Below are positions 5,261 to 55,690 of a stretch of DNA of 64,000 nt, piece by piece. The notes beneath the pieces were generated by a model. The model had not been told where the DNA came from. It saw only the letters and a list, made by a program, of their open reading frames with translations, and made no database searches. A program made the translations under genes and the position numbers. The stretch is from Patescibacteria group bacterium (lineage in GTDB: Bacteria; Patescibacteriota; Patescibacteriia; UBA9570): NCBI GenBank assembly GCA_041660305.1, contig JBAZWO010000001.1, forward strand, positions 226,268 to 290,267, written 5' to 3'. Each line of letters starts with the position of its first letter. The first letter of the stretch is position 1.

Positions 5261-6202
5261 TTACCGGCAACCCTCGGAGTTGAAATTGAAGCTGTATCCA
5301 GGTTGACCAGTAAAATTGTATCCGGCAAACTGGTTGCCGCAAACACTGTCGCCACTACCTGGCCACTTGCTGATAGGCAAATTCTCCTGACCAGAGAATG
5401 TTCCGCCGCTGGTACTGGTTGCGCGCAGCATTTCGATGTGAACATGGGCACCTGTGGAGCTGCCAGTGTTGCCCAGATAGCCAACGCCGCGTCCTTTAGC
5501 GATCCACCAACCCGGTACAACCATTGAAGAATCACGCATGTGCGCCAGCCGGTAATAGTAACGCTTGCCACTACCAGCATTACCACATTCTGCGATAATT
5601 TGGTTCCCATAGCTGGAGCTGTACGAAGTGTACTTTACCCAGCAGCTAGCCGGGGACTCGAGCAATTTTCCGGTTGTACCATTGGCCCAGTCCGTGGAGT
5701 AGTAGATAGACCCTGTGTGCTTGTAACAGCCGTAGCCACAGGTCATGGTGAAGGTTCCGCCGTCCATGGGCAAACGCCAGTTCCAGGGAAAGCTGTCGTA
5801 GGTGTTGGTTCCGGTACCCTGTGTGCCCTTGATAGTACCCTGCGAATTGTTGATGAAATCCAGAATGTTGTCGCCGGCCGGAGAACGAGCTTCGATGATG
5901 TCTCCGGTATGATCGTCGATATAAGTGACCAGGTACTTTTCTTCCACCTGCTCGATGAAGCCCCAGGTGGACATGGCCTCATTGGCCGAGATTACATAGG
6001 GCAACATGTCACTGTAGATCACCAGCTCCGGATTCACACCGACAGACAAGGCAATCGTCTCGGCATCTTCGAGAGAAATCATCCCCTCGACATCGTTCTG
6101 CAACTCAGTCTGAAACTCAGACGAGCTCTGATCACCACATCCGAAGAACATGGTAACCACAACCATCACACCAACCAACGTTTTCAACGAACGATCGCGC
6201 AT
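5261..6202 (-). CDS. High-GC lipoprotein precursor with a PepSY-like region and a C-terminal M23 (LytM-type) metallopeptidase domain
   Basis: GGAGG lies 5 nt upstream of the second ATG (6202). N-terminus MRDRSLKTLVGVMVVVTMFFGCG has a lipobox-like FFGC. M23 hallmarks YYYRLAHM...GNTGSSTGAHVHIE (HxH). Line 5761-5820 has 35/60 G+C. Confidence 0.8.
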   Translation of the reverse strand: MRDRSLKTLVGVMVVVTMFFGCGDQSSSEFQTELQNDVEGMISLEDAETIALSVGVNPELVIYSDMLPYVISANEAMSTWGFIEQVEEKYLVTYIDDHTGDIIEARSPAGDNILDFINNSQGTIKGTQGTGTNTYDSFPWNWRLPMDGGTFTMTCGYGCYKHTGSIYYSTDWANGTTGKLLESPASCWVKYTSYSSSYGNQIIAECGNAGSGKRYYYRLAHMRDSSMVVPGWWIAKGRGVGYLGNTGSSTGAHVHIEMLRATSTSGGTFSGQENLPISKWPGSGDSVCGNQFAGYNFTGQPGYSFNFNSEGCR

Positions 6203-6324
6203 GATAACCTCCATTTTCAGGTTGCGCGGTGATACCGTTACCTCCGTTCAAACCATCTGAAAGTAAGTAACCGTACCAACATGAATAGCATAAATAATAT
6301 CGTTATTTTTGAGAAGGGGTTTTT

Positions 6325-6411
6325 GGCGACGGCGCAACAACAAAAAACACCAGTTTCATCTGGTATTTATTAGCTAACACTGTTGTGGATAAGTTTTGCT
6401 AGCGACGGCGC
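6325..6411. repeat. Intergenic repeat unit A2 (GCGACGGCGC-bounded)
   Basis: GGCGACGGCGC at 6325-6335 and AGCGACGGCGC at 6401-6411. Hairpin ACCAG/CTGGT plus T-run on the - strand. TGTGGATAA at 6384-6392. Confidence 0.8.
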
Positions 6412-6664
6412 TAAAAACAGCACTTTCGCTGCCCTCCTTTGCCCCTACCTCTCAATGGCCGTAGAGAATATTAGTAAGGACTTAGGAGGACAACCCCACA
6501 TTAAAAACAGTAAATAACCATTTTATCGTGGAAAAAATAATAGATCACTCACCATCTATTTATGCCGTCCAACCCACCGCAGATAAACAGATTGTAAATG
6601 AGCCATTTTGGCGAAAGTGCGCTACCATTTTGCAGATATCTTTTATTTTATTCAAGAGCATTTT

Positions 6665-6751
6665 AGCGACGGCGCTAGGCTAATTTTGAACATAATAATC
6701 AATTTTATCAGGGTTAACACCGTTGTGTATAACTTTTTGTAGCGACGGCGC
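6665..6751. repeat. Intergenic repeat unit A3 (GCGACGGCGC-bounded), abutting the ssb stop codon
   Basis: AGCGACGGCGC at 6665-6675 and 6741-6751. The box here is degenerate (TGTGTATAA). The last base overlaps the ssb TAG. Confidence 0.75.
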
Positions 6752-7116
6752 TAAAATGGCTCTTCGGTAATTTCTTGCACTGTTTCGGTTGGTTTAGAAC
6801 TTAATAACATTAATCGCTCAGCGATAATGTCGGTAAAATAGTGCATTTTACCATCTTTATCTTCAGCGTTACGATACACTACCCTACCTTCCACTAATAC
6901 CTTGTCTCCTTTGTGCACATACTGCTTCATAATTTCAGATAATTTTCCCCAACCTACAATGGAATGAAACTCGGCTTTTTCTTTAGTTTCTTTGCTAGGA
7001 TTTTTCCAAATCCGATTGGTAGCTAGATGAAAATTAGTTACAGTAGTTTTATTTACCGTCCGCTGTTCTGGATCTTTAGCCACATGACCAATTAATAAAA
7101 TACGATTTAAATCCAT
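6751..7116 (-). CDS. ssb: Single-stranded DNA-binding protein
   Basis: OB-fold N-terminus MDLNRILLIGHVAKDPEQR...FHSIVGWGKLSE and an acidic C-terminal tail ending EEPF. Confidence 0.9.
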   Translation of the reverse strand: MDLNRILLIGHVAKDPEQRTVNKTTVTNFHLATNRIWKNPSKETKEKAEFHSIVGWGKLSEIMKQYVHKGDKVLVEGRVVYRNAEDKDGKMHYFTDIIAERLMLLSSKPTETVQEITEEPF

Positions 7117-34087: not shown

Positions 34088-35239
34088 CTATTCTCCGACA
34101 ACTATTAGCTTTGGTATTCCCTTAGCCAAATCTGTTTCTGGATTAGTGAGATCGTGAATCGCTGAAACAAGTAAATCAGCGTTATACCGATACTGTTCGC
34201 CGTAGTGCGTGCCAGGATCATGGGTAATAAAATTATCACCATCATAACCTATAATTATGATCATGTGATAATACGGACCGCCGTTTTTATAATGTGGATT
34301 GTTGAGCGCCTTACCCAATACTGGCACTATTACTGGTTTACCGGCATTGAGTAATTGTTTAATGTGAATAACACTCACGTCATCCGACACTACGGCTGGT
34401 ATACCAATATAATCACGCGCCGTGCGAGCCGTAAGTTCGGCCGAAGTATCTTCATCAAAACCATATGCTTGCCTCTCCCAATTTACGATATTAATAATCT
34501 CCTGATCAGCTTGATCGGGCGTTAACACTGTACCGAGATAGTAGTGGCTAAGCATGACTAAAATAGCTTCCTCACAAGCTTCATTATATGGCGCTCCCCA
34601 ATTATTCAATGGCGCTTGAACTGTAAATGGTACGTTAAGCATTACCCGTCCGGCATAATTATAACTATACTCATCCACTAAGCTTTGCTGTTTGGTAAAT
34701 AACTTAACTTCACCATTAACTGCGCCCCAAACATTAACGGCGGTTCTATTATAAAATCGTTTTGTTTGACCGGGTAGCAGTAAAGTATTTTTTTTAATGC
34801 GCAATTGATTATTTCCTCCATCAGTAACCGACCAGCCCCGTAAAGATTGTGGTAATTGACCTAAGTTTTTTATAGTCACAAATTCTTTTGCATCTGGTTT
34901 ATTACTACGCTGGTGTAAAGCAATAATTTCAATATTTGGCTGTATACTAAGAAATTGCTGATTACTGATCCCTATGCCTTGATCAATTATTACTTGCCAG
35001 GCTTCTTCCGGAGTATGACTAGCGTAAGGATTGCCCAGCGCCTGTAAAATAGCTAAGGCATGTTTGGGTCGTCCGAGATAATATCGCCGCTGATCCAATG
35101 GATTAACATACCAGGCCTCACCGTGCGCCTCAACTTGCAGAAAAATATGGCCGGCGGTTTGCGCTCTGGTAGTAATTGGAAACATAGTCACTAGACTAAC
35201 GATAATATATAACCAAACGATATTGTAGTTTTTGTGCAT
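34088..35239 (-). CDS. Secreted protein with a lamin-tail-like domain and a C39-like (Peptidase_C39_2-type) cysteine peptidase domain
   Basis: Signal peptide. LTD-like FVTIKNLGQLPQSLRGWSVTD. C39-like pattern QAPLNNWGAPYNEACEEAILVM...HMIIIIGYDGDNFITHDPG. Confidence 0.6.
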   Translation of the reverse strand: MHKNYNIVWLYIIVSLVTMFPITTRAQTAGHIFLQVEAHGEAWYVNPLDQRRYYLGRPKHALAILQALGNPYASHTPEEAWQVIIDQGIGISNQQFLSIQPNIEIIALHQRSNKPDAKEFVTIKNLGQLPQSLRGWSVTDGGNNQLRIKKNTLLLPGQTKRFYNRTAVNVWGAVNGEVKLFTKQQSLVDEYSYNYAGRVMLNVPFTVQAPLNNWGAPYNEACEEAILVMLSHYYLGTVLTPDQADQEIINIVNWERQAYGFDEDTSAELTARTARDYIGIPAVVSDDVSVIHIKQLLNAGKPVIVPVLGKALNNPHYKNGGPYYHMIIIIGYDGDNFITHDPGTHYGEQYRYNADLLVSAIHDLTNPETDLAKGIPKLIVVGE

Positions 35240-35257: not shown

Positions 35258-35773
35258 TTACTCTATGAGTGAAAAAGTTTGTATAATATCATTCACTTCT
35301 TTTTGAATATTAACATTTTGCTCTGCCATATCAGGATAACCTGCATAATCACCGCTGCCTGAATAATAATAACTATAAGTCGAATTTTCTGTTAAGTATG
35401 TCTGCGGATAGTCTATCACGGCCGAATCAGTCTTATCTTCATTTTTTACGATTTGAATTTGAATATAGCGTGCAGAATCATTTTCTGCCGTTAATCGAAC
35501 AGTTTTGTAGATTTTTGAACCTGATTCTACCTTTTCTTGAACAGCTCCCCAATTAGTAGGAAATACCAAAGAAAATCCATACGTTGAGTTTTTATATTCC
35601 CCCAAACTAGATACTGGCTCTGTCGTACTTTCCTCTGGCGCTGGAGTGGTGGTATTAGTGTTAGTTGGCGCTGTATTCACAGGTAAATTAGTATTTTGCT
35701 CTGTAGTGCATCCAGCTCCAATCAGGGTAACTAATCCTACCAGGCCGGTAATGAGATACGTTTTTTTGTGCAT
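35258..35773 (-). CDS. Lipoprotein, paralog family 1 of 3
   Basis: I prefer the start MHKKTYLITGLVGLVTLIGAGCT at 35773. It shares a near-identical domain with 35790..37250. Confidence 0.7.
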   Translation of the reverse strand: MHKKTYLITGLVGLVTLIGAGCTTEQNTNLPVNTAPTNTNTTTPAPEESTTEPVSSLGEYKNSTYGFSLVFPTNWGAVQEKVESGSKIYKTVRLTAENDSARYIQIQIVKNEDKTDSAVIDYPQTYLTENSTYSYYYSGSGDYAGYPDMAEQNVNIQKEVNDIIQTFSLIE

Positions 35774-35789
35774 AGATATGTTACTTACT

Positions 35790-37250
35790 TTATTGATTCC
35801 TAAATTTATCTGCAAAACTATTAACCAGCGCAGTTAAGTCTTTCCTAGTTTCCTCACTTGTAACTGGATTATAGCTAGCACTAAACCAATACCGGCTACC
35901 AGCTGAAGCACCTTGGATAATATATGCCTCATGACCCTGTGTATTATCACCCCTACTATAATTATATTTCACTGCGTTATAACCATTAATATCCAGTATC
36001 TCATAATCATCATAGTTATTGATATCAGTTCCTTCTACGCCATCTGCTGGAAAATAGATCTTTTCAGCATAAGTTTTGGCCCAAGCCACTAGATCACTTT
36101 TATCCTCAGAAGCTTTATATTCAGTGATACTAATTCCAGTAGTACTCGTAGCGGCTTTAGGATCGCTAGATTCAATCGATAACATAACTGCCTCTAGTGT
36201 GTCCACGCCTTCTAATTCTACATTATCCATTGCATCATTTAAACTATATTTCCCCGGATACTCAATGATAAAATTATCACTATCATAAGTGATTAAACCA
36301 GTATTCAATTTTAAGCTTGGTTCAACCACTTTTTTCACTTCGTCACAGCCAATAGGTTGTTTGGAGCCATCAGCACGTCCGCTGCCACATGAACTTTCAA
36401 ACAGAAGCCAATCTTTATTAAGCATTTTTGGATAGTTGCCTTCACCTGCCGCACATATATCAAAGTCTCTCTTGAATTGGTCAGCAGAAGTGTAACCAGC
36501 TTTGTTGGGTAATAGAGTAACCACAAAAGTGTCAGCTTTTTGGATTGCGTCTAAGTACTGAAAACTGTAGATTATTTTTGTTGTACCGCTAAATTTTGCA
36601 ACCAATTCATCGAAGTATAGGAGGGCGATACCGGCTTCTTGTTCGGTCCCGCATTCATCTGCGTTGGCTTTTAACTGCTCGGCAGTATAATCAAATGGGG
36701 CTGTCGTTTTTGAAACTGACGCATTAACGCCAGTAGTTGAATAAGACAGGGGTTCAGTTGATTCGTCTGTCAGAGAAAATGTTTTGCTGATTTCCTTTAC
36801 TTCTTTTTGAATATCAAAATATTTTTGTTCTTCCATATCAGGATAACCAGCATAATCACCGCTGCCTGAATAATAATAACTATAAGTCGAATTTTCTGTT
36901 AAGTATGTTTGCGGATAATCTATTACAGCCGGATCAGTCTTATCTTCACTTTTTACGACCTGAATTTTAATAAATCGAGCCGAGTCGTCTTCTGCTGATA
37001 ATTGAATAGAAGCGTTGATTTTTCCACCATTTTCTTGTCTTTCTTTTATTGTTCCCCAACTTTCAGGAAATACCAAAGAGAATCCATACGCTGAGTTTTT
37101 ATATTTGTATTGATTTGTTTCAGAAACTGATGTGTCTGCTCCTGTTTCTGTGGCAAGGCTGGTGTTGGTAGTTTGTTCTGTAGTGCATCCGGCTCCAAGC
37201 AGGATAAATAATCCTACCAGGCCGGTGATGAGATACGTTTTTTTGTTCAT
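35790..37250 (-). CDS. Lipoprotein, paralog family 2 of 3
   Basis: MNKKTYLITGLVGLFILLGAGCT. Nucleotides 36834-36957 match 35327-35450 with about 7 mismatches in 124 nt. Confidence 0.7.
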   Translation of the reverse strand: MNKKTYLITGLVGLFILLGAGCTTEQTTNTSLATETGADTSVSETNQYKYKNSAYGFSLVFPESWGTIKERQENGGKINASIQLSAEDDSARFIKIQVVKSEDKTDPAVIDYPQTYLTENSTYSYYYSGSGDYAGYPDMEEQKYFDIQKEVKEISKTFSLTDESTEPLSYSTTGVNASVSKTTAPFDYTAEQLKANADECGTEQEAGIALLYFDELVAKFSGTTKIIYSFQYLDAIQKADTFVVTLLPNKAGYTSADQFKRDFDICAAGEGNYPKMLNKDWLLFESSCGSGRADGSKQPIGCDEVKKVVEPSLKLNTGLITYDSDNFIIEYPGKYSLNDAMDNVELEGVDTLEAVMLSIESSDPKAATSTTGISITEYKASEDKSDLVAWAKTYAEKIYFPADGVEGTDINNYDDYEILDINGYNAVKYNYSRGDNTQGHEAYIIQGASAGSRYWFSASYNPVTSEETRKDLTALVNSFADKFRNQ

Positions 37251-37303
37251 AGATGTATTTAGTTTAATTGTCTTATTGTAGAGTCTGCTTAATTGTTGAT
37301 TGA

Positions 37304-38620
37304 CTATTCTGCTATAGAATGTGAGTATTCTATGCCATACATCATATCATTCAACAAGTCTGTTTTTGATCGAAACGATTGTTCGTCAGTATCATTTACA
37401 ATTATCGTAAGATAATACTGTCGTGGTTCAGTATCACCAAGCATAGTATCTTTAAAAGGAATAATATAATGACTAAAATAGCGTGTAGTGGATGTGCCAT
37501 CTACTGTTGTATGTTCTATTTCACCTTCATACTTCATTGCTGGCATGCCATCTACACTCACAGATTGAACACTAAATTGATTCTCTTTGAGCGAGGTATC
37601 ATTCGGAGAAGTATACGGCCAATATGGATTATCTAATGCGGATTTATTGTAACCTTCTTTGTTCATAAAATTAATACACGAAAAGCACGGAGGTGCTATT
37701 TCTCCTCCCCGGTCTGCTGTGTAAGCATAATCTTTTGAATAGATTGTAAAACTGGGTGTACGTGGTTCCGCAGTAGCAAATTCTATATCATATGCCTCTC
37801 CGGTTATTTGTGCCTGTTCATCGTCATATAAATCTTCATGTTTTTTGTGTAAAGATATAGCACCCCATTTTCCATCTGCGCAGAGTGTAAACGGAACACC
37901 GGGTATTCCTATACGTCGGAGATTAGTACTGGCTGCTGAACAGGGAGTTTCTGGATCACGTTGAGCGGTTAGTTTTGCAGCAGCAACCAGGGAATGATCG
38001 ACTGTATTCTCTCTGTTCATTCGTTCAATAACGATATAACCGGTTTTCTGATTTCCCACAAATGGCATTTCTTTTGGAGCAGTAATATAGTCAAACTCCT
38101 TTTGGCGAAAATAATCCTGTAAATCTCCAATAATTGGACTAATATACACATACTCTTGATTCAACGCATCATTGGCTCTTAGAATACCAAGAGTATACAC
38201 CTCATTTTCTTTCAAAGTAGGTAAAGCGTCCAGAATCGAGCTTGGAAAGTACAGTGAATGCGTATACCCTGTTCGCATATTGCGTTCATAATCATCAATC
38301 ATAAAATGGTAATCATATGCATTCAAAGTACCGATATTTTTTTCAGAAACGAGTAATACCATGTCGCCGACATGGGTTGGAGATTCACTTTCTATAGCAC
38401 CTTTCTTACTCGGACTAAGCTGCTCAGGATAGGTTGGCTGAATAGGAGGATCCACTTTTACTGCTTGCGCCATAATAGTACCGACCTCTGTAGAGAAAGA
38501 TATTTCATTCTGGGGGGAGTTAGTTTGTGATGTGGTTGTCTGTTCTGATTTAGTGCATCCGGCTCCAAGCAGGCTAACTAATCCTACCAGGCCGGTGATG
38601 AGATACGTTTTTTTGTTCAT
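37304..38620 (-). CDS. Lipoprotein, paralog family 3 of 3
   Basis: MNKKTYLITGLVGLVSLLGAGCT. The 5' end and leader (38563-38640) are nearly identical to 37183-37262. Confidence 0.7.
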   Translation of the reverse strand: MNKKTYLITGLVGLVSLLGAGCTKSEQTTTSQTNSPQNEISFSTEVGTIMAQAVKVDPPIQPTYPEQLSPSKKGAIESESPTHVGDMVLLVSEKNIGTLNAYDYHFMIDDYERNMRTGYTHSLYFPSSILDALPTLKENEVYTLGILRANDALNQEYVYISPIIGDLQDYFRQKEFDYITAPKEMPFVGNQKTGYIVIERMNRENTVDHSLVAAAKLTAQRDPETPCSAASTNLRRIGIPGVPFTLCADGKWGAISLHKKHEDLYDDEQAQITGEAYDIEFATAEPRTPSFTIYSKDYAYTADRGGEIAPPCFSCINFMNKEGYNKSALDNPYWPYTSPNDTSLKENQFSVQSVSVDGMPAMKYEGEIEHTTVDGTSTTRYFSHYIIPFKDTMLGDTEPRQYYLTIIVNDTDEQSFRSKTDLLNDMMYGIEYSHSIAE

Positions 38621-38644: not shown

Positions 38645-38965
38645 TTATTGCGTCTGCTTAATTGTTGTAATAACCGCTTGGACAAATGGATTGCCGTGTT
38701 TCAGTTTGGGAAAAATTTTTTTCCCGGCCCGTTCCTTTTGTAATAGATTGGCATGTTCTAAAATTTTGATATGTTGCGATGCTAACGGTAGGGAAATCTT
38801 CAAAATGTGTGCAATATCGCCAACAGTCAGTTCAGGCTGTTCCACCAGCAGGCGGAAAATTCGGTAACGATTCACATCACTTAGTACTTTAAAGGCCGCG
38901 GCCATGTTTTTATCGATTTTACTGAATACTTTACGATTTTTTAGAATAGCTTTTTGGTTGAGCAT
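38645..38965 (-). CDS. ArsR/SmtB-family winged-helix regulator (no cysteines)
   Basis: FKVLSDVNRYRIFRLLVEQPELTVGDIAHILKISLPLASQHIKILEHANLL. Lacks metal-sensing Cys motifs. Divergent from the high-GC cassette array. Confidence 0.8.
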   Translation of the reverse strand: MLNQKAILKNRKVFSKIDKNMAAAFKVLSDVNRYRIFRLLVEQPELTVGDIAHILKISLPLASQHIKILEHANLLQKERAGKKIFPKLKHGNPFVQAVITTIKQTQ

Positions 38966-39071
38966 ATAATAAATTATTAAAAATATTAGTTAAATACTTG
39001 TTTATATGTTTATATATATACCATCACGATTAATCCGTCAATAGCTATTCGTCCATTACCAGAAAAAATAC

Positions 39072-39101
39072 TTGACTTTATTTAGCAGGCGTGGTTACTA
39101 T
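39072..39101 (+). promoter_or_regulatory. Sigma-70-like promoter in front of leader copy 1
   Basis: TTGACT (39072-39077), an 18-nt spacer, then TACTAT (39096-39101). The same TACTAT precedes leader copy 2 (39783-39788). Confidence 0.6.
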
Positions 39102-39254
39102 GTGGTTCGCTCTTTGAAAAAAAAGATGCATTCAAGTCTAAATTATAAATTTTAATAATCTATATTTTAGATCTGAGTGCATCGCTTCGCTAATATTTAG
39201 CAAAGTACAGATGCGTCAGGCAAAGGCCCACTTTGGGCAAAAAAGGAGAGGACG
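39102..39254 (+). promoter_or_regulatory. Conserved cassette leader, copy 1 (153 nt, structured)
   Basis: GTGGTTCGCTCTTTGAAA... Hairpin 1 39125-39183, hairpin 2 39185-39205, hairpin 3 39226-39238, SD GGAG 39245-39248. Line 39121-39180 has 13/60 G+C. Confidence 0.8.
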
Positions 39255-39593
39255 ATGAAGAACTCATTGTTGGTTAGTTTTTCGATGTTGGTGTTTGGTT
39301 GTTTCATGGGGTGCCTGCCGGATGTTCCTTTGGAGGAAGGAAGTCCAACTCCAGATGCTGAAGTCGGGTGTTATACCGACGACGACAGAGACGGATACAT
39401 CTCCGCCGCATGCGGGTACGGGACGGAGAGTCCCGACTGCGACGATGGCGACCCCAACGTGAACCCCGGCGTCACAGAGATCTGCGGCGACGGAATTGAC
39501 AATAACTGCGGGGGAATGATTGATGAGGATTGCCCTAGCCCCGCCGTCGTTGACGAAATTTCTTTAGGGGAGGAGATCAACGAAGGGCTTTGA
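39255..39593 (+). CDS. High-GC small lipoprotein precursor with one Cys-rich MopE-like (putative metal-binding) repeat
   Basis: SD plus ATG. MKNSLLVSFSMLVFGCFMGC, then DDDRDGY...DCDDGDPNVNPGVTEICGDGIDNNCGGMIDE. Confidence 0.75.
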   Translation: MKNSLLVSFSMLVFGCFMGCLPDVPLEEGSPTPDAEVGCYTDDDRDGYISAACGYGTESPDCDDGDPNVNPGVTEICGDGIDNNCGGMIDEDCPSPAVVDEISLGEEINEGL

Positions 39594-39788
39594 GCCTTTC
39601 GTGAAAAAAGCGAGCAAGCGCTCGCGTCTCATAAGAGATAGCTCTGGATACTCCAGAGGCGGAATGAGAATAATGAGACTTACTTGCAAATGCAAAATCT
39701 TGTTCTTCGTTCTTGTGCACGTAAACTTTGTTGCGTGCAGAAGAACAGAAATAACCCAATCAAGGGTTGTTTCTATCACGGTTACTAT

Positions 39789-39941
39789 GTGTTTCGCTCT
39801 TTGAAATAAAGATGCATTCAAGTCTAAATTATAAATTTTAATAATCTATATTTTAGATCTGAGTGCATCGCTTTACTGAATTTTTGGTAAAGTACGGATG
39901 CATCAGGCAGGAGCCCGATTATTGGGCCAAAAGGAGATGGG
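39789..39941 (+). promoter_or_regulatory. Conserved cassette leader, copy 2
   Basis: Identical to copy 1 through hairpin 1. Hairpin 2 has a diverged sequence but keeps its pairing. Hairpin 3 is GCCCGATTATTGGGC. Confidence 0.8.
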
Positions 39942-40628
39942 ATGAGAAATTTACTAGTCGCGGTTCTTGGTTTTTTGTTTCTTGTTGCCGGATTTTTTTT
40001 CATCGGCTGCGGGCCGATGGAAGAAGATGACGATTGTTCGGCTGCGTATAGCAGCGCTACGCCAGTGACGGACGACTGGCGGCCGGAGACAGAGGTCATC
40101 CTAGATGATGTCCTCTGGATTAGCCAGGCACCGCCGTCTTTGGATTGTGGCCCCACCACACTGGAGATGGCGTGGGCGTTTTTGGATGGAGAAATTCCAA
40201 CGTACGATCCAGGCGTCATTGATATAATGGCATGGATGGATGAACACGTCGATACATATGATAACGGGGGTCTGACAAATATGGTTGAGTTGGCGTACAC
40301 CAGCTTGTGGTATTTACAGCTCCCAGCGGAGGCATTCGGAGATGATCTCTGTATATCGATCGGCGGGTTGGAGGGGTTATACAATGAACTCCTGCTTGGA
40401 AAGCCAGTAGGATTCTCAAGCTATGGGCAAGAGGCTAATGCCTCAACGGCCGAAATGACGGCCGATGGAACAGGCCATGCTATGCTCCTTGTGGGCATGA
40501 CACCCACTGAAATCGTGGTGCACGACTCTAGTCAAAGCTCTGATTTTGGAGCTTATCGCCGCTTCAGTATCGAGAGTTTCGACCGAGTTGGTTGGAATTC
40601 TCACGGCGGGGTGAGGTTTATGCCGTAG
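39942..40628 (+). CDS. High-GC lipoprotein precursor with a C39-like papain-fold cysteine peptidase domain
   Basis: MRNLLVAVLGFLFLVAGFFFIGCG. SQAPPSLDCGPTTLEMAWAFLDG fits Q...CG..(L)xM, and GHAMLLVGMTPTEIVVHDS fits His...Asp. Confidence 0.65.
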   Translation: MRNLLVAVLGFLFLVAGFFFIGCGPMEEDDDCSAAYSSATPVTDDWRPETEVILDDVLWISQAPPSLDCGPTTLEMAWAFLDGEIPTYDPGVIDIMAWMDEHVDTYDNGGLTNMVELAYTSLWYLQLPAEAFGDDLCISIGGLEGLYNELLLGKPVGFSSYGQEANASTAEMTADGTGHAMLLVGMTPTEIVVHDSSQSSDFGAYRRFSIESFDRVGWNSHGGVRFMP

Positions 40629-40664
40629 TCCCAAAGCTCTCGTCAACCTTGACGAGGCAGAATC

Positions 40665-40880
40665 AAAACGCTGGAGCTCTGAAAGTCTAAACACTTTCAT
40701 CTCCACTAATTTCTAGGGCACAGAAAAGTGGTTCGCTCTTTAAAAATAAAGATGCATTCAAGTCTAAGTTATAGATTTTAATAATCTATATCTTAGATCT
40801 GAGTGCATCGCTTCGCTAATATTTAGCAAAGTACAGATGCATCAGGCAGAGGCCCAATCATTGGGTCAAAAGGAGAAGAG
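40665..40880 (+). promoter_or_regulatory. Conserved cassette leader, copy 3 (core 40728-40880) with a 63-nt 5' extension shared with copy 4
   Basis: The extension AAAACGCTGGAGCTCTGAAAGTCTAAACACTTTCATCTCCACTAATTTCTAGGGCACAGAAAA contains the hairpin GGAG..GAAAGT/ACTTTC..CTCC. Confidence 0.8.
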
Positions 40881-41498
40881 ATGAGAAATTTATTTGGTTT
40901 TTGTTTTGTTGTTAGTTTTTTATTTTTTTTCGGTTGTTTGGAGGACGTCCCCACGGGTTGTGAGGATTCCACTACACCGTGCCCGATGGAGGTGCCAACA
41001 CCCCTGCCCGGGTGTGTGGCGTCCCCGATCTCAGGGGACGAGCTCCTGAGTTTCTTCCCTGAGTGGGAAGGAACCGCGAAGTTTGTATCGATATATGAAG
41101 AATGTTCCGGAGACTGCTCCGGGACTTTCACTTTCCAGTCGGGAGTGTTCCCAGGTCAAACGGATGGAAATGCCTCTATAAGCATGGAGGGCTCGTTCGG
41201 AGACATGTCTTCTTGCGATGGGGGCTACCTGCCGTTAACCGCAACTTTTGATAGTTGTGGAGGTATGATGGCGAAAGGAGATTTCGGGGCTTTTGGGACC
41301 ATTTATTTAGAGGGTCAGTTTGCTGAAGAGGAGACCACTTTAGAGTGGTCTAGTAATGGGTGGGGGGATGGGGAGGATATTAATTTCCTCTACCTCCGCA
41401 TAGATTACGAAGACGATTGGATCGTCTCGACCACCACGAGACAAGATCAAAATGACGAGGTAGTGTGGGAGGAGTCATGGGACTCCGGCTGTAATTAA
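40881..41498 (+). CDS. High-GC lipoprotein precursor, unknown function
   Basis: SD plus ATG. MRNLFGFCFVVSFLFFFGC. Cys-containing 205-aa product with no recognised domain. Confidence 0.6.
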   Translation: MRNLFGFCFVVSFLFFFGCLEDVPTGCEDSTTPCPMEVPTPLPGCVASPISGDELLSFFPEWEGTAKFVSIYEECSGDCSGTFTFQSGVFPGQTDGNASISMEGSFGDMSSCDGGYLPLTATFDSCGGMMAKGDFGAFGTIYLEGQFAEEETTLEWSSNGWGDGEDINFLYLRIDYEDDWIVSTTTRQDQNDEVVWEESWDSGCN

Positions 41499-41638
41499 AA
41501 AACCCCACAACGCTTTTGTCTCCGTTTGAGCGATCGGCGGTATAGCCGATAACAAATGGAGAGCCGCCGCGGCGGAGCAGACTGCCGCAACAAACCATAT
41601 TTTTTCTGTCACCTGCGAAGGTAGGGAAAAATTGGTTA

Positions 41639-41850
41639 AAAAACGATGGAGCTCTGAAAGTTTAAACACTTTCATCTCCACTAATTTCTAGGGCACAGAA
41701 AAGTGGTTTGCTCTTTGAAATAAAGATGCATTCAAGTCTAAGTTATAAATTTTAATAATCTATATTTTAGATCTGAGTGCATCGCTTCGCTAATATTTAG
41801 CAAAGTACAGATGCATCAGGCAAAGGCCCACTTTAGGCAAAAAGGAGAAG
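41639..41850 (+). promoter_or_regulatory. Conserved cassette leader, copy 4 (core 41703-41850) with the shared 5' extension
   Basis: Near-identical to copy 3 in the extension and to copy 1 in the core. Confidence 0.8.
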
Positions 41851-42480
41851 ATGATGAAAAATGTAGCACTGGTCGTTGGCTTTCTGCTGGTTGCCGGAAT
41901 GGTGTTCTTTTTCTTCGGTTGTGGCGCTTACGGAGAGGATGACGATTCCACTGATTCCACCGCTACGCCAGGTGAGTGTGTTGAGGGGGAGACGGAGGAG
42001 TTAGCAGATCTGTGGCATCCGGATAGGGACACCGATGGCTTCGGTGCGGAGGACGGGGTAATCCTCTCCTGTACCCAACCTGTCGGTTACGTCGCCGACA
42101 ACACCGACTGCGATGACGCCGACGCCACGGTCTATCCCGGCGCGACCGAGGTCTGTGACGGGAAGGACAACGACTGCGATGGCGCGATCGATGAAGGCTT
42201 CGATACGGACGCAGACGCAGACGGATACACCGTCTGCACTGACTGCGACGACGATGACCCGGCTGTTGGCGACCCACCTACCTGGTATGAGGACGCCGAC
42301 GACGACGGGTACACACAACCTTTTAATGGGGTCAAGTCGTGTACCCGGCCCGAGGAAGGCTGGGTGATTGGGTCTGAAGAAGCCGACTGCAACAAGGGTG
42401 ACGCCAGCGTCTACCCTGGCGCCCCTGAGATCTACGACGGGAAGGACAATGACTGCGACGGCGAAATTGATGAGGGTTGA
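41851..42480 (+). CDS. High-GC lipoprotein precursor with tandem Cys-rich MopE-like (putative metal-binding) repeats
   Basis: MMKNVALVVGFLLVAGMVFFFFGCG. Repeats DCDDADATVYPGATEVCDGKDNDCDGAIDEG and DCNKGDASVYPGAPEIYDGKDNDCDGEIDEG. Line 42121-42180 has 39/60 G+C. Confidence 0.75.
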   Translation: MMKNVALVVGFLLVAGMVFFFFGCGAYGEDDDSTDSTATPGECVEGETEELADLWHPDRDTDGFGAEDGVILSCTQPVGYVADNTDCDDADATVYPGATEVCDGKDNDCDGAIDEGFDTDADADGYTVCTDCDDDDPAVGDPPTWYEDADDDGYTQPFNGVKSCTRPEEGWVIGSEEADCNKGDASVYPGAPEIYDGKDNDCDGEIDEG

Positions 42481-42514
42481 TGTCTACGTAAAGTAGGTAT
42501 TAGCTCTCGTAGCT

Positions 42515-42551
42515 CTCGCTTAGAACATAGTGTTCCAAGCGAGATTTTTTT
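42515..42551 (+). terminator. Rho-independent terminator closing the cassette array
   Basis: CTCGCTTAGAACAtagTGTTCCAAGCGAG followed by ATTTTTTT. Confidence 0.8.
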
Positions 42552-42599
42552 AAAATAATATCGGTCGTATAATCCTACTAAATAAAGCTTTCCGTATAG

Positions 42600-43622
42600 T
42601 TACAACAAAACATAATATCGTCCTTTAGTTTCACCTCGTTCAGCCGCATAGCCTTTTTGGACTAAGGCACTTAATAAGCGGTGGGCATACTGGCGAGATA
42701 CATGAAACTCTCGTTCAATATCACTAGCCGTTAATTGTTGCCGTTGCTGTAGTAATGCATAAGCAACTTGCTCTTTATTGGATAATCTTTGAGCAACATT
42801 TACGTGTTGAATAGCTTGCTCTGCTTTAGTTAAAGCGCTTTGTAAGGAATACCGAACTCCAGCTGTAAAATATTCTAACCAAGTTGTTTTATCTCCACTA
42901 TCGGCAGTATGTAAGCTATCTGAATATTCTTTACGATTCACATCATACCAATCATCCAACACGAAATATTTATTAATTTCGTAGTTATGCTGTAATAAAA
43001 TTAAAGCGGTTAATAATCTACATGTCCGGCCGTTACCATCAATAAAAGGATGTAGATAAACAAATTCGTGATGAAATATTCCGGCCGTTAAAATTGTTGG
43101 CACGTTAGCAGTGTCTTCTAACCATGAAAATAATTGTTGCAACGCTATTATAATTTTTACCGCTGAATGATAAGGCGGTTCATGTTTTACATGAAGTATA
43201 AGTTTCCCATTAACTTGCCTGCGTTTGCCAACTACAATACGTTTATTACGAATCGTGCCGGCAATATCATTATTTACTCCAACTAATAATTGTTGATGCA
43301 CGCTTAATAAATATTCAAGGTTAAGTGATTTTTTTACATCTTGGGATAAATTACGTAAAATATCAAAATAGTTACGCACTTCTTTTTCATCACGATTCAC
43401 TGGCACGCGTTCATCTAGCAACAAATTCGTTACTTCCGGTAACGATAATGAATTTCCTTCAATACTATTGGAGATATAAGCCGATTGAATTAAATTATCA
43501 CGTTCTAAGTTGAGCTGTAGTTTCTTTGGCAAACGCAAACTTTCCAACCGACCATACAAACGCTCTATTTTCGTTAAATTCTGTAATAACGTAGAAGTTA
43601 ACGTATAATTTGGTTTGAACAT
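42600..43622 (-). CDS. Fic-family protein (AMPylase-type) with a C-terminal winged-helix domain
   Basis: Fic motif HPFIDGNGRTCR. C-terminal wHTH-like LTASDIEREFHVSRQYAHRLLSALVQKGY. Confidence 0.9.
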   Translation of the reverse strand: MFKPNYTLTSTLLQNLTKIERLYGRLESLRLPKKLQLNLERDNLIQSAYISNSIEGNSLSLPEVTNLLLDERVPVNRDEKEVRNYFDILRNLSQDVKKSLNLEYLLSVHQQLLVGVNNDIAGTIRNKRIVVGKRRQVNGKLILHVKHEPPYHSAVKIIIALQQLFSWLEDTANVPTILTAGIFHHEFVYLHPFIDGNGRTCRLLTALILLQHNYEINKYFVLDDWYDVNRKEYSDSLHTADSGDKTTWLEYFTAGVRYSLQSALTKAEQAIQHVNVAQRLSNKEQVAYALLQQRQQLTASDIEREFHVSRQYAHRLLSALVQKGYAAERGETKGRYYVLL

Positions 43623-44846: not shown

Positions 44847-45080
44847 CTAACTTATTCTATTTATGAAACAAGTTACAAAACAACTCGTAAAATGGATGAA
44901 CGTCATATGGACAAGTCCGCTTATGAAATATATCTTGATTTGGCCAAAGAGAAACTAATTCCGCAAACCGCTGGTGCTGGTTTTGGCTTACAGCGCTTAC
45001 TGCGCTATTTAACGGGTATTCGCACCATGGAACAAGTTGTATTATTTCCACGCTCACCTCGCGAACCAATTATCTTTTAA
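44847..45080 (+). pseudogene. C-terminal fragment of a class II aminoacyl-tRNA-synthetase-like gene (AsnRS/AspRS/AsnA-like motif 3)
   Basis: The open frame ends ...YLDLAKEKLIPQTAGAGFGLQRLLRYLTGIRTMEQVVLFPRSPR (motif 3 GxGxGxxR and FPR). There is no catalytic core upstream, and a stop lies at 44844-44846. Confidence 0.65.
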
Positions 45081-47441: not shown

Positions 47442-47505
47442 GATCAAACAAGGGGCTATAGCCCCGAGCGAAAAACGAACACAGTGAGTTTTTCAGTCGA
47501 AGGGC
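47442..47505. repeat. L segment of the composite repeat, immediately 3' of tRNA-Gln
   Basis: GATCAAACAAGGGGCTATAGCCCCGAGCGAAAAACGAACACAGTGAGTTTTTCAGTCGAAGGGC. It contains the palindrome GGGGCTATAGCCCC and the stem GAAAAAC/GTTTTTC. Confidence 0.75.
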
Positions 47506-47575
47506 TGGGTCGGTAGGATTCGAACCTACGATGACGGGGCCAGAACCCGTTGCCTTACCACTTGGCTACGACCCA
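47505..47575 (-). tRNA. tRNA-Gln (anticodon CUG), CCA not encoded
   Basis: Manual fold. Acceptor UGGGUCG/CGACCCA with U1-A72. D arm GCCA-AGUGGUA-AGGC. Anticodon stem ACGGG/CCCGU with loop UUCUGGC. T arm GUAGG-UUCGAAU-CCUAC. Discriminator G. Confidence 0.85.
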
Positions 47576-52409: not shown

Positions 52410-54977
52410 CTAGAAAAACGCGTCTGGACCAGTTAGTTCAGCTCCGCCTGCTAAATTATTCAGTTTTCCTCGTTCAATTACTTCAGCTTCAACGATGGCC
52501 CGATCTCGACCATGTTTTAAGCGTGATAATTGCTTAATTTGTTCAGCTAATTTTACATTACCAGCTGGTGGCATAACTGTGCGCATATTAAACGGCCGAC
52601 AAGTAGTATTATCAATTAATAATTTAATATTAGCTGTGTATTTATCTACGTTAATAACATCGTTTTCATTAAACACTGGTGCTAATTCTTTTGCGATCAT
52701 CTCGGCATCTTCTACACCAATGCGGAAGGCTATTTTGGTGCCAACGTTACCAAAGACAGCATCACGAATTTGCGTATTGTTATCTTTTACTAACTGATTA
52801 ATATATTGATGAGCTAAAATCATATTCAAACGATATTTACGCGCTTCAGACAAAATTGTAGCAATGGAATCGGTAGTGTAGTTTTGAAACTCATCAACAT
52901 AGGTGTAAAAATCTTTACGTTGCTCTTGTGGCATACTAGCCCGCGCCATGGCCGCCATCTGAATTTTAGACACCATAATTAAACCAAGTAATGAACTATT
53001 AACTTCGCCAATGGATCCTTTGGACAAATTCACTAATAATATTTTCCGATTATCCATGATTTCCCGCACATTAAAGCCTGAACGAGCCTGCCCAACGATA
53101 TTGCGCATCATATCGTTAGTTAAAAACCGGCCAATTTTGGAAATAACGTACGATAACATGTCGGCCGCTTGTTGCCCAGCTTGTGATTGCTCATATTCTT
53201 GTTGCCAGAAATTCTTTACCATTAAGTTTTTTACTTTTTTTAACTTATCTTTACGAAATTTAGCATCGGTAAACATGCGTGGAATTTCAATTAAGGTAGC
53301 GCCTGATTCTTTATCTTCCATTAAAGCCAACATAGCGTTACGCATGTAATGTTCAAACATTGGACCAATCATTTCCTGACCGAATAACTTATAAAAAATT
53401 GCTACCATTTCTTGCACGGCAAAATCTTTTTGCTCATTAGTTTCGTATTCCAACATGTTCAAACCCACTGGCCGTTCAATATCGCTCGGTGAGAACACTA
53501 CTACATCATCGGCTCGTTCTTTTGGTATCCGCTCTAACACATCTTGTACTAAATCGCCGTGTGGATCAATCACACACACACCTTCACCATTTTTAATATC
53601 TTGCACGGCCAAACTGGACAACAATACCGATTTACCAGAACCGGTTTGCCCAATAACATATAAGTGCCGCTGACGATCAGCTCGTTTTATTTTCACTGGT
53701 GTAACCATGCCCCGATACTCCACTTCTCCTAAAGTAACGCCTTCTTTTGGCATATTAAATGGCGGCGCAGCTTTTTTGGCTAATAACCAACGAATGTTTG
53801 GTGTTTCGGTGGTTGGTAATGGCATGTGATACAAAGTGGTTATTTCCTTGGTATTCAAAATAAAACTTCCTTTTTCATCAAACGTTCGATAAATAAAATG
53901 CTGAATTTCTTTTTTACTGGTAGTTGGTTTAGTGGCAATAAATTCATTAGCATAGAGTGTACCGGAATATTGAGCAAACGAACCAAGAATGGATTGCATT
54001 TTATTTTCCGCGATTGCTTTATTAGCAGCCGATACAATAATCCTAATATTTACATCAAAGCCTGGACTAGCGGCTTTTTCCTCAAAACCTTTCACCATTT
54101 CTTCTTCCATTGGTGATAAACGATATTCTCGCTCGGTACGTAAATCTATGCCTTGCTCACGTTTAGCTCGATTTTTCATGTACATGTATTTAAAACTAAT
54201 CCAAAATCGATAAAAAACATTGCCAAATAATTCGGCTTTAGCCTGCTCATATTTTTTACCTTGTTGCATTACTTGAGCAATGCGCGCTGGTTTACGCGCC
54301 CAATTAGTTAATGCTGGCCGAATAACAAATTGAATCGCCGCTCCTTCATGTTTTTCAAATTTCGATAATACATTGGTTAATGAGTTTAACGGATCTACTT
54401 CTAATTTATTGTAAATCAAAATAGGATATTCATATGGTTTTTTTAATTTAATTCGAGAACTAACCACTACACCATTGGGTTCAAAAATATTATAGTCATC
54501 CACTTGTTCAATAACCGCGCTATTATATTGAGCATGAAACTGTTGCTCAAAAAAACGCCGTAAATAAAACGGCACCGCCGCATAAAATGTGATTAATTGA
54601 TCTTTATCAGCTACTAATTCTAAACTAATATGATCATTTCGCCCTAATAGCCATTGTTCAAATTTGCGATACGGCCGAATAGAAGCCACGGCCGAATAAA
54701 ATGCCTCAATAATACCTATCCGCGCTTCTTCGGTTGGTTTGCGGTAGGAATCGTTCTGACTTTGTTGTTCTTTTAAATCTTCTTTCGAAACACGAATAAA
54801 TAAAATTACTTTACGAAAACTCTCTTTTTCTTCAATCCAACGATGAATTAAACGCCGGGCTATCATCAGCCAACCTACCAACAAAATTGTACTAACTAAA
54901 CCGTAAGTTAAGCTAGCCACTAACGGATCAGCTAAATACCCCAGACCTAATTTTAATAATTCAAAAATAAACCCCAT
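52410..54977 (-). CDS. Membrane-anchored VirD4/TraG/TraD-like (type IV coupling protein-like) P-loop ATPase
   Basis: N-terminal TM helices, Walker A GQTGSGKS, Walker B-like YVDEFQNY. The C-terminal half resembles TraD/VirD4. I did not recognise the roughly 430-aa N-terminal region. Confidence 0.6.
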   Translation of the reverse strand: MGFIFELLKLGLGYLADPLVASLTYGLVSTILLVGWLMIARRLIHRWIEEKESFRKVILFIRVSKEDLKEQQSQNDSYRKPTEEARIGIIEAFYSAVASIRPYRKFEQWLLGRNDHISLELVADKDQLITFYAAVPFYLRRFFEQQFHAQYNSAVIEQVDDYNIFEPNGVVVSSRIKLKKPYEYPILIYNKLEVDPLNSLTNVLSKFEKHEGAAIQFVIRPALTNWARKPARIAQVMQQGKKYEQAKAELFGNVFYRFWISFKYMYMKNRAKREQGIDLRTEREYRLSPMEEEMVKGFEEKAASPGFDVNIRIIVSAANKAIAENKMQSILGSFAQYSGTLYANEFIATKPTTSKKEIQHFIYRTFDEKGSFILNTKEITTLYHMPLPTTETPNIRWLLAKKAAPPFNMPKEGVTLGEVEYRGMVTPVKIKRADRQRHLYVIGQTGSGKSVLLSSLAVQDIKNGEGVCVIDPHGDLVQDVLERIPKERADDVVVFSPSDIERPVGLNMLEYETNEQKDFAVQEMVAIFYKLFGQEMIGPMFEHYMRNAMLALMEDKESGATLIEIPRMFTDAKFRKDKLKKVKNLMVKNFWQQEYEQSQAGQQAADMLSYVISKIGRFLTNDMMRNIVGQARSGFNVREIMDNRKILLVNLSKGSIGEVNSSLLGLIMVSKIQMAAMARASMPQEQRKDFYTYVDEFQNYTTDSIATILSEARKYRLNMILAHQYINQLVKDNNTQIRDAVFGNVGTKIAFRIGVEDAEMIAKELAPVFNENDVINVDKYTANIKLLIDNTTCRPFNMRTVMPPAGNVKLAEQIKQLSRLKHGRDRAIVEAEVIERGKLNNLAGGAELTGPDAFF

Positions 54978-55615: not shown

Positions 55616-55690
55616 TGGTGCCCTCGAGAGGAATCGAACCTCTATTGCAAGTTCCGGAAACTTATGTCCTATCCATTGAACGACGAGGGC
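55616..55690 (-). tRNA. tRNA-Arg (anticodon CCG), CCA encoded
   Basis: Manual fold. Acceptor GCCCUCG/CGAGGGC. D arm GUUC-AAUGGAUA-GGAC. Anticodon stem UAAGU/ACUUG with loop UUCCGGA. T arm AGAGG-UUCGAUU-CCUCU. Ends A-CCA. Confidence 0.85.

Follow-up and report, generated by a model that had tools for sequence, protein, structure and literature searches.

We analyzed a 64,000-nt stretch of DNA, hereafter the window, from the metagenome-assembled genome of a Patescibacteria group bacterium (Patescibacteriia; UBA9570; GCA_041660305.1, contig JBAZWO010000001.1, positions 226,268-290,267). Within it, four plus-strand lipoprotein open reading frames (ORFs) form an array at 39255-42480, and each carries one copy of the same structured repeat at its 5' side. 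Judged by its modeled fold and its placement, the repeat is most likely an RNA-level control module, a 5' untranslated region (5' UTR) or intercistronic leader, and not a DNA capture site. For the locus as a whole, the explanation that we favor, and to which we give about an even chance, is a strain-specific, hypervariable surface-lipoprotein locus: four payload genes, horizontally acquired or otherwise compositionally alien, would each stand behind an RNA leader that occludes the ribosome-binding site, and the copies of this leader would have been spread by recombination. The array consists of the following genes, where GC3 denotes the G+C content at third codon positions:

39255-39593, plus strand: ORF1, a 112-aa lipoprotein with one MopE-like Cys repeat (MopE, PF11617); GC3 0.62.
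39942-40628, plus strand: ORF2, a 228-aa lipoprotein with a C39-like peptidase (Peptidase_C39_2, PF13529); GC3 0.54.
40881-41498, plus strand: ORF3, a 205-aa Cys-rich lipoprotein, fold unassigned, with an AT-rich signal peptide; GC3 0.53.
41851-42480, plus strand: ORF4, a 209-aa lipoprotein with tandem MopE-like repeats (PF11617); GC3 0.66.

The initial annotation of this DNA had called four plus-strand ORFs at exactly these positions and had given all four products lipobox-type N-termini. Both calls were confirmed, the second by reading the translations: on inspection, each product has a basic n-region, a hydrophobic core and a lipobox Cys within its first ~25 residues, with signals of the types MKNS..VFGC/FMGC, MRNL..FIGC, MRNL..FFGC and MMKN..FFGC. 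The proposed spacing of 5-8 nt between a GGAG and each start codon needed one correction, since in ORF4 just 3 nt separate the GGAG from the first ATG; the second ATG (41854), 6 nt past the GGAG, is the likelier start and would yield a protein of 208 aa. Similarly, the view that the payloads are mutually unrelated held in so far as they fall into different Pfam families, but ORF1 and ORF4 are kin through their MopE repeats.

The array ORFs differ markedly in composition from the rest of the window. A set of 48 other ORFs has a mean GC3 of 0.285 (sd 0.054, maximum 0.43), and relative to these native ORFs the four were outliers with z-scores of 4.5-7.0 for GC3 and of -4.7 to -8.2 for a leave-one-out codon-usage log-score. 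This bears out the earlier claim of a high-GC, foreign composition, with ORF1-ORF4 and a gene at 5261-6214 standing out as clear outliers, and the G+C counts that had accompanied it (13/60, 39/60 and 23/60) proved exact when recounted. Two related statements were correct only in part. The leader had been described as AT-rich, which applies to its long hairpin (GC 0.24), but the whole leader has a GC content of 0.34-0.37, equal to the host intergenic mean of 0.35. The composition had also been said to flip at the start codon; this is so for ORF1 and ORF4, where the change falls at or before the start, but in ORF2 and ORF3 it falls at the lipobox. GC3 over the first 15 codons was 0.07 in ORF3 and 0.27 in ORF2, compared to 0.60 in ORF1 and 0.53 in ORF4. 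The 3' spacers between the cassettes are intermediate (GC 0.43-0.46).

The repeat itself is 149-154 nt long and occurs as four direct copies that share 85.4-93.5% pairwise identity. Invariant 19- and 21-mers of the leader each occur exactly four times in the 64 kb, compared to 0.04 and 0.00 expected occurrences. The same repeat had already been noticed before each ORF, and we confirmed this, with copies 2 and 4 beginning at 39788 and 41702. The copies and their predicted parts, including the Shine-Dalgarno sequence (SD) and the 5' segment predicted to pair with it (anti-SD), are:

39102-39254, plus strand: leader copy 1, with anti-SD GCUCUUU at 39109-39115, long hairpin at 39125-39183, second hairpin at 39184-39206, conserved junction at 39205-39222 and SD AAGGAG at 39243-39248.
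39788-39941, plus strand: leader copy 2, with anti-SD at 39796-39802, long hairpin at 39811-39869 and SD at 39931-39936.
40728-40880, plus strand: leader copy 3, with anti-SD at 40735-40741, long hairpin at 40751-40809 and SD at 40870-40875.
41702-41850, plus strand: leader copy 4, with anti-SD at 41710-41716, long hairpin at 41725-41783 and SD at 41842-41847.

Leader 1 is predicted to fold with an energy of -52.6 kcal/mol, compared to -31.0±4.0 kcal/mol for dinucleotide shuffles (z = -5.4), and a predicted consensus fold of 47 pairs is common to the four copies. This fold comprises a closing helix between GCUCUUU and AAGGAG, a 25-bp AU-rich hairpin, a 9-bp hairpin, a 3-bp hairpin and a GC hairpin that sits immediately 5' of the A-rich SD region. 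When copies were folded individually, the closing helix gained 4-6 pairs toward the start codon, formed by copy-specific sequences such as GUUC:GGAC in leader 1 and GUUU:AGAU in leader 4. Standard pairs occupied 99.5% of pair cells, whereas only 29-45% were standard when the partners were offset by 1-3 columns. Compensatory changes occur in two pairs, one in the long hairpin (A-U to G-C via G-U) and one in hairpin 2 (G-C to A-U), several G-U pairs are conserved among the copies, and the junction contains the invariant single-stranded stretch GUACRGAUGCRUCAGGCA. Furthermore, the plus strand folds 4-12 kcal/mol better than the minus strand in all four copies. Such a bias is expected for an RNA with G-U pairs, unlike a DNA palindrome, and thus argues for a role at the RNA level.

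The predicted fold engages the translation start. At 37 °C, the predicted pairing of the SD with the 5' 25 nt of the leader was 0.95, 0.92, 0.35 and 0.67 in leaders 1 to 4 respectively, and predicted long-range (>100 nt) pairing of the SD was 0.94, 0.95, 0.30 and 0.52, compared to a mean of 0.06 in 48 native genes. Two other features of the leaders were considered and rejected as control elements. A 15-codon upstream ORF at 39215-39258, 39902-39945 and 40841-40884 begins in the conserved GAUGCRUCAGG, and its UGA overlaps the main AUG (AUGA); as a leader peptide it is probably a chance occurrence, having no SD and losing its frame in leader 4, and the leaders do not count as independent cases. 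Phase variation through a poly(A) tract, known from the vlp genes of Mycoplasma hyorhinis, was also dismissed: the A8 run of leader 1 is identical in the three assemblies that hold the locus (see below) and is interrupted in leaders 2-4.

The sequences that surround the leaders bear on how the array may be transcribed:

39072-39101, plus strand: predicted sigma-70-like promoter (TTGACT-18-TACTAT), just 5' of leader 1.
39594-39787, plus strand: spacer 1 (GC 0.43), with hairpins but no plus-strand T-run terminator; it ends in a -10-like TACTAT, as before leader 1.
40665-40727, plus strand: first copy of a 63-nt extension shared by cassettes 3 and 4 (95% identity), with the hairpin GGAGCUCUGAAAGU..ACUUUCAUCUCC.
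41640-41701, plus strand: second copy of the 63-nt extension, 5' of leader 4 and in common with the region upstream of leader 3.
42515-42551, plus strand: the array's sole canonical intrinsic terminator, in which AUUUUUUU follows an 11-bp stem that has one mismatch.

Homology among the four copies begins ~1-7 nt after the TACTAT -10 box of leader 1. The -10 region (CGGTTACTATGTG) is common to leaders 1 and 2 only, and no promoter was predicted for leaders 3 and 4. None of the three spacers holds a plus-strand intrinsic terminator; the terminator after ORF4 was missed by a strict scan because of its stem mismatch. As the module starts at the predicted +1 and the spacers are devoid of terminators, an RNA-level role is favored over that of a DNA capture site. 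The simplest reading of this arrangement is that one transcript, or two, would cover the array, with the repeat forming first a 5' UTR and further along an intercistronic leader.

On this model, the ~150-nt module would act as RNA, providing gene 1 with its 5' UTR and each of genes 2-4 with an intercistronic leader. GCUCUUU together with 4-6 flanking nt would pair in vivo with the SD/start region ~130 nt downstream, and the resulting closing helix would bound a junction that bears two or three short hairpins in addition to the AU-rich one of 25 bp. With the same SD-masking fold on each of them, the four cistrons would come under one translational and/or stability control. Release would need the structure to be opened or cut, for which RNase III acting on the long hairpin, a protein or a ligand are candidates. 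The copies would have been spread and kept alike by duplication and by homologous recombination or gene conversion between 5' modules, and the same exchange process would operate on the native lipoprotein genes next door.

These native genes have a shared 5' region of their own:

35258-38620, minus strand: three native AT-rich lipoprotein genes (starts at 38620, 37250 and 35773) with their own 5' module, a short UTR plus signal peptide.

The native module spans ~125 nt with 93-97% nucleotide identity, comprising ~45 nt upstream (in the first two genes) and ~80 nt of signal-peptide coding sequence, and the genes turn unrelated past the signal-peptide region. In the closest strain (contig L005, 955-1443), the gene after that for the ArsR-family regulator carries the native signal peptide on a payload of the second/third type, an outcome expected if direct 5' modules recombine. 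On these sequence comparisons, lipoprotein genes of this genome generally share and exchange their 5' modules. Since the native genes also share and exchange such modules, no special capture machinery would be needed, and homologous recombination would be enough. The array leaders themselves are mosaic: at their few informative sites, the copies pair up as 12|34 in the upstream part and as 14|23 around the last hairpin and SD, and a third grouping, 13|24, emerges from the N-terminal peptide motifs (GC-L-x-DVP versus FFxGCG..EDDD). Thus, the array was probably shaped by ordinary recombination in a hypervariable surface-lipoprotein locus.

Comparison with related strains at the upstream end showed that the locus is variable:

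38645-38965, minus strand: ArsR/SmtB-family helix-turn-helix (HTH) regulator (Pfam HTH_5/HTH_20, NCBIfam HTH_metalloreg), divergent from the array.
38987-39004, unstranded: TAGTTAAATACTTGTTTA motif in the ArsR promoter region, also found upstream of the ArsR orthologues in L005, L006 and L013.
~39046-39050, unstranded: left edge of the strain-specific segment, where homology to L005 ends (read by eye).

ArsR has 203 homologues, with 65-83% identity across Magasanikbacteria, Uhrbacteria, Peregrinibacteria and other Patescibacteria. In L005, ArsR is 98% identical, and homology spans the ArsR promoter and ends at ~39046; the ~600 nt visible beyond this point on the 1,445-nt contig hold a Cdd1-like gene and a 70-aa gene, and no array. 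More distant relatives (L006/L007 and L010-L012) are also without the array next to ArsR. The TAGTTAAATACTTGTTTA motif, by its recurrence upstream of orthologues, is a probable ArsR operator. It has a single exact match in the window and is absent from the leaders, so ArsR is not the reason for the repeat. The long palindrome of the leader was rejected as an ArsR operator on the same ground, and a regulatory link between ArsR and leader 1 is possible but unsupported. In L013, whose ArsR is 76% identical, a single MopE lipoprotein gene adjoins ArsR (900-1600; GC 0.58 versus ~0.45 around it), and its promoter palindrome TAGTTAAGTAAGTGTTTAACTA resembles the motif upstream of ArsR genes, which hints that ArsR may control MopE lipoproteins. 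The ArsR orthologue of L006/L007, a relative that is otherwise AT-rich, is preceded at 1-300 by GC-rich palindromic repeats such as GGCCCCTCGACTCCACTTCGTTCCACTCGGGGC.

The leader was also searched for elsewhere. Among the 4227 families of Rfam 15 no match reached the gathering threshold, and at E<=5 region 38900-42600 gave only chance matches to microRNAs and small RNAs, far below threshold. A covariance-model search, as suggested with the initial annotation, was run on the window, 8 related loci and 25 viral MopE loci: with filters off, the model of the four copies found just those four in the whole window and nothing in the related or viral loci. Exact-pattern scans, one for the outer arms of the long hairpin and one for the invariant junction, returned one chance match in GTDB species genomes, inside an ffh gene, and none for either pattern in JGI metagenomes and IMG/VR; these scans demand exact matches and thus miss diverged relatives, and the collections evidently do not contain the window's own genome. 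We therefore describe the leader as a candidate for an undescribed RNA motif, so far from a single population.

Homology searches with the payloads, which had also been suggested, named no donor. ORF2 recovered solely its own cluster among 5.8 billion protein clusters and had no PDB relative at E<=1. The native C39_2 protein at 34088-35239 was rejected as a paralogue from which ORF2 had been recoded, as the two share only 23% identity, a family-level likeness. ORF3 had neither a Pfam match nor a word-based protein match, and its AlphaFold single-sequence model was unusable (predicted local distance difference test score 38). Apart from ORF3 itself, an exhaustive HMMER pass over 1.84 billion representatives returned a single remote relative, P0005 (E = 1.5e-4, 39% identity over 97 aa), which is encoded on a 1.2-kb JGI contig (L004) where both genes have a GC3 of ~0.63 and the 510-nt intergenic region has a GC content of 0.41. 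P0005 has a conventional lipobox, LVAGC, whose Cys aligns to Cys27 of ORF3, past the AT-rich FFGC signal peptide of ORF3. This start of the alignment suggests that ORF3 may be a host-like 5' module fused to a foreign mature part. MopE repeats matched many IMG/VR viral contigs at 30-38% identity, via the repeat alone, and none of the four array ORFs had a match in PHROGs or NCBIfam. L004 has at 430-655 a 200-nt AT-rich leader of its own (minimum free energy -94.9 kcal/mol), whose 5' CCUCU is predicted to pair with either a nearby GAGGAGG or the real SD, a possible three-part switch; its architecture is analogous to that of the array leader, without sequence or covariance-model similarity.

Several observations weigh against the proposed explanation. 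In leader 3, the closing helix is displaced to the GAGAAGAG spacer, and the SD stays mostly unpaired. Covariation is weak, with 57 of 500 shuffles equaling the observed score, because only four related sequences, paralogous copies from one population, enter the test; the similarity of the copies could merely reflect recent copying. The leader also does not behave as an RNA thermometer in silico: the SD of leader 1 was paired at 0.99 to 0.86 across 10-55 °C, and the trend with temperature was non-monotonic in leaders 2 and 4. As for origin, the host-like GC content of the leader fits a host source but also the AT-rich intergenic DNA of a GC-richer donor, for which the intergenic region of L004 offers a comparison. 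The payload searches identified no donor lineage, so that the case for horizontal transfer comes from composition and distribution only.

One alternative that we regard as unlikely, though a serious one, is compatible with the functional model: leaders and ORFs may have been imported together, as a whole island, from a donor with GC-rich coding and AT-rich intergenic DNA. The flip at start codons would then be the normal pattern of the donor and not a junction made in the host. L004 displays such a pattern (gene GC3 0.63, intergenic GC 0.27-0.56, its own folded leader with z = -9.5), the inter-cassette spacers have an intermediate GC content, and strain-specific DNA begins at ~39046, ahead of the leader 1 promoter. 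The match between leader GC and host intergenic GC argues the other way, as do the host-like codons of the ORF2 and ORF3 signal peptides, the homology to P0005 that begins only past the signal peptide of ORF3, and the lack of similarity between the L004 leader and that of the array.

We consider it rather unlikely that the leaders are passive copies, i.e. the ordinary promoter and UTR that a single ancestral lipoprotein gene passed on through gene conversion and recent tandem duplication, with a fold that has no regulatory role. The folding z-score, the better plus-strand fold of every copy and a long-range SD pairing far above the native background all speak against passive copying. Moreover, 9 of ~10 core substitutions are transitions, helix substitutions are compensated or yield G-U pairs, and the payloads, which belong to different Pfam families, are not divergent duplicates. 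Passive copying would nevertheless account for an identity of 85-94% that extends even to loops and junction A-runs, and for a covariation test that is not significant; the native neighbors, too, share a 5' module, without a long UTR.

A ligand-sensing riboswitch of a new class, with the junction as an aptamer whose ligand would either stabilize or open the closing helix that holds the SD, and with surface and metal-binding lipoproteins under its control, is distinctly improbable. The predicted fold has an SD-containing closing helix around a 4-5-way junction with an invariant single-stranded stretch, and two payloads bear putative metal-binding MopE repeats. However, Rfam gave no match even at E<=5, no homologue and thus no conserved binding core was seen in the collections scanned, and aptamers do not typically have a near-perfect AU-rich hairpin of 25 bp or junctions with variable A-runs.

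Pfam scans of ORFs of at least 120 aa in the 64 kb, about a dozen of which had no match at all, revealed no domain of an integrase, transposase, invertase or other recombinase, in line with the earlier statement that the window has no integrase or transposase. The repeat had been presented as a reusable expression or recombination module; there is indeed one copy of a 5' module per gene, but the repeat looks RNA-level and not like a recombination site. It is therefore very improbable that the repeat is a site at which a recombinase captures DNA cassettes, in an integron- or shufflon-like manner, despite a cassette-like layout with sharp homology boundaries, a 59-nt imperfect palindrome within the repeat and a strain-variable locus. 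Besides the lack of a recombinase, each repeat precedes its ORF and takes in the SD, which sets it apart from attC, the G-U positions of the palindrome pair only as plus-strand RNA, and the module sharing of the native genes is explained by plain homologous recombination. Since all copies are direct repeats, switching by inversion is impossible.

Finally, the locus was compared between assemblies. ORF2 and the ArsR protein are recorded on the window's own contig (491,640 nt; NCBI and JGI/IMG), on contig JBAYKG010000004.1 of GCA_041664685.1 and on contig k141_353398 of European Nucleotide Archive entry ERZ27249449, an independent MEGAHIT assembly. The latter two are 100% identical to the window in DNA over 38966-41000 and 100% identical at the protein level across ORF3 and ORF4. 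Both sibling contigs (L002, L003) terminate in native lipoprotein paralogues, not within the array, and the two outer junctions of the array are unique sequence outside the repeats. With the same array in three assemblies of one population and unique outer junctions, we give almost no weight to an assembly chimera, in which the repeats stitched GC-rich fragments of another organism into an AT-rich contig, even though the source is a metagenome and ~150-nt repeats are able to mislead assemblers. The genomic setting is chromosomal (mraZ, mraW, penicillin-binding protein, Mur ligase, SSB, DNA polymerase III tau and type IV secretion coupling protein), and the whole array had no blastn match in phage and plasmid collections.

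The initial annotation recognized no described system with this layout, yet two families of surface lipoprotein genes share the design, namely Mycoplasma vpma/vsp and the upstream homology box (UHB) genes of Borrelia. In M. agalactiae vpma and M. bovis vsp, the 5' UTR and signal-peptide regions are conserved and the remaining coding sequence is without significant homology; switching there depends on a tyrosine recombinase (Xer1/Mbr) encoded next to the genes, which lie in both orientations and are served by a single promoter, with the recombination sites placed in the 5' UTR (PMC2268961). The array likewise consists of clustered lipoprotein genes with a conserved 5' region and unrelated mature parts, which places it with this kind of layout, and it also is a strain-variable locus of a reduced-genome, host-dependent bacterium. 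It differs in having no recombinase, in that all genes and repeats are direct, as opposed to invertible, in its ~150-nt folded leader with predicted SD occlusion and only loosely similar signal peptides, and in payloads that are compositionally alien to the genome.

In the UHB family of Borrelia burgdorferi (erp / ospE / ospF), lipoprotein genes share a promoter/upstream box and encode different surface proteins (PMC7002432). The array resembles this family by layout, not by sequence, in the shared upstream box on different lipoprotein genes. Those genes, however, are dispersed on cp32 prophage plasmids, whereas the array is tandem and chromosomal, and the UHB is a promoter/operator region that is not known as an SD-sequestering RNA and shows no composition contrast. 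Akins and colleagues reportedly found in 1999 that some UHB members share only the upstream box and leader peptide, their mature parts being unrelated.

Integrons need an intI integrase, an attI site and an attC site 3' of each promoterless cassette. The array resembles them as a one-directional series of unrelated, often foreign ORFs split by a recurring structured repeat, but no intI was found in the window, the repeat lies 5' of the ORF and ends in SD and ATG, and a plain terminator comes after the last ORF. With direct repeats that stand 5' of the ORFs and contain an SD, and with no recombinase found, the array lacks what defines an integron or an invertible vsp/vpma locus. Structured 5' leaders include translational riboswitches, RNase III-activated leaders such as that of E. 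coli adhE, and 5' stabilizer stem-loops of surface-protein mRNAs. As in leaders that control translation, an upstream segment of the repeat is predicted to pair with the ribosome-binding site and the long hairpin would suit RNase III; in contrast to them, the repeat has no Rfam match and occurs four times within one cluster. Groundwater Patescibacteria have hundreds of genomic islands and transferred genes, up to 13% of genome length, and reported transfers are mostly within Patescibacteria and not recent (PMC12455944). The array is similarly atypical in composition, strain-specific and absent next to ArsR in relatives; unlike the reported islands, it shows a large GC3 shift, and no donor or mobility gene was found for it. 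Altogether, the layout of a conserved 5' module on unrelated mature lipoproteins is already known, and the array would be a variant of it, set apart from the Mycoplasma and Borrelia genes by the folded, putatively SD-masking leader and the composition contrast.

Patescibacteria live attached to other cells and depend on surface proteins whose regulation and diversification are hardly understood. The locus appears to wire fast-turnover alien lipoprotein genes, encoding a peptidase and Cys-rich, putatively metal-binding repeats, to one folded leader. If the leader is a true control element, it would be among the first lineage-specific cis-regulatory RNAs proposed for a candidate phyla radiation (CPR) bacterium, and the array would be a compact example of foreign genes becoming expressible in a very AT-rich host. 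If it is only a by-product of duplication, the locus would still provide a non-pathogen example of the design of shared 5' module and variable payload seen in mycoplasmas and Borrelia. A more far-reaching reading, which we rate as improbable, is that the ~150-nt element belongs to an undescribed class of portable CPR cis-regulatory RNA, ligand-controlled or processing-activated, which would provide both SD occlusion and regulated expression and, via homologous recombination among its copies, would double as a recombinase-free landing pad for installing, exchanging and losing foreign surface-protein genes; the array would then be a leader-mediated cassette system that remodels the cell surface of an episymbiont.

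Beyond the array, one more GC-rich lipoprotein gene lies in the window:

5261-6214, minus strand: fifth GC-rich lipoprotein gene, with an FFGC lipobox and an M23 peptidoglycan hydrolase, GC3 0.63; a separate locus.

This gene lies between an unknown gene and ssb and has a different upstream region, in which the covariance model found no leader copy; its start region is predicted to lie inside a local hairpin. A ~95-nt intergenic element occurs in three minus-strand copies (2785-2905, 6306-6426 and 6646-6766), two of them preceding the M23 lipoprotein gene and the third a gene for an ABC-transporter binding protein. It is ordered as a palindrome TAGCGCCGTCGCTA, AAAACTTATCCACAACGGTGTTAGC (with a DnaA-box-like TTATCCACA), a T-run hairpin and GCGCCGTCGCYA again; GCGCCGTCGCYA recurs exactly 76 nt after its first occurrence, and the motif has 6 matches compared to 0.15 expected.

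The neighbors named in the initial annotation, a divergent ArsR gene and a convergent Fic gene, were both confirmed by Pfam. The Fic-HTH gene (42600-43622, minus strand) strongly matches phrog_5978 (E = 2.9e-48), a phage protein family without assigned function, and has a host-like GC3 of 0.26. Farther downstream, a 62-aa ORF at 44892-45080 (plus strand) has a tRNA-synt_2 (class II aminoacyl-tRNA synthetase) Pfam match in public annotation and is probably a gene remnant, and a type IV secretion coupling protein of the TrwB/VirD4-like kind is encoded at 52410-54977 (minus strand), ~10 kb from the array. Transfer RNA genes lie at 47505-47575 and 55619-55690.

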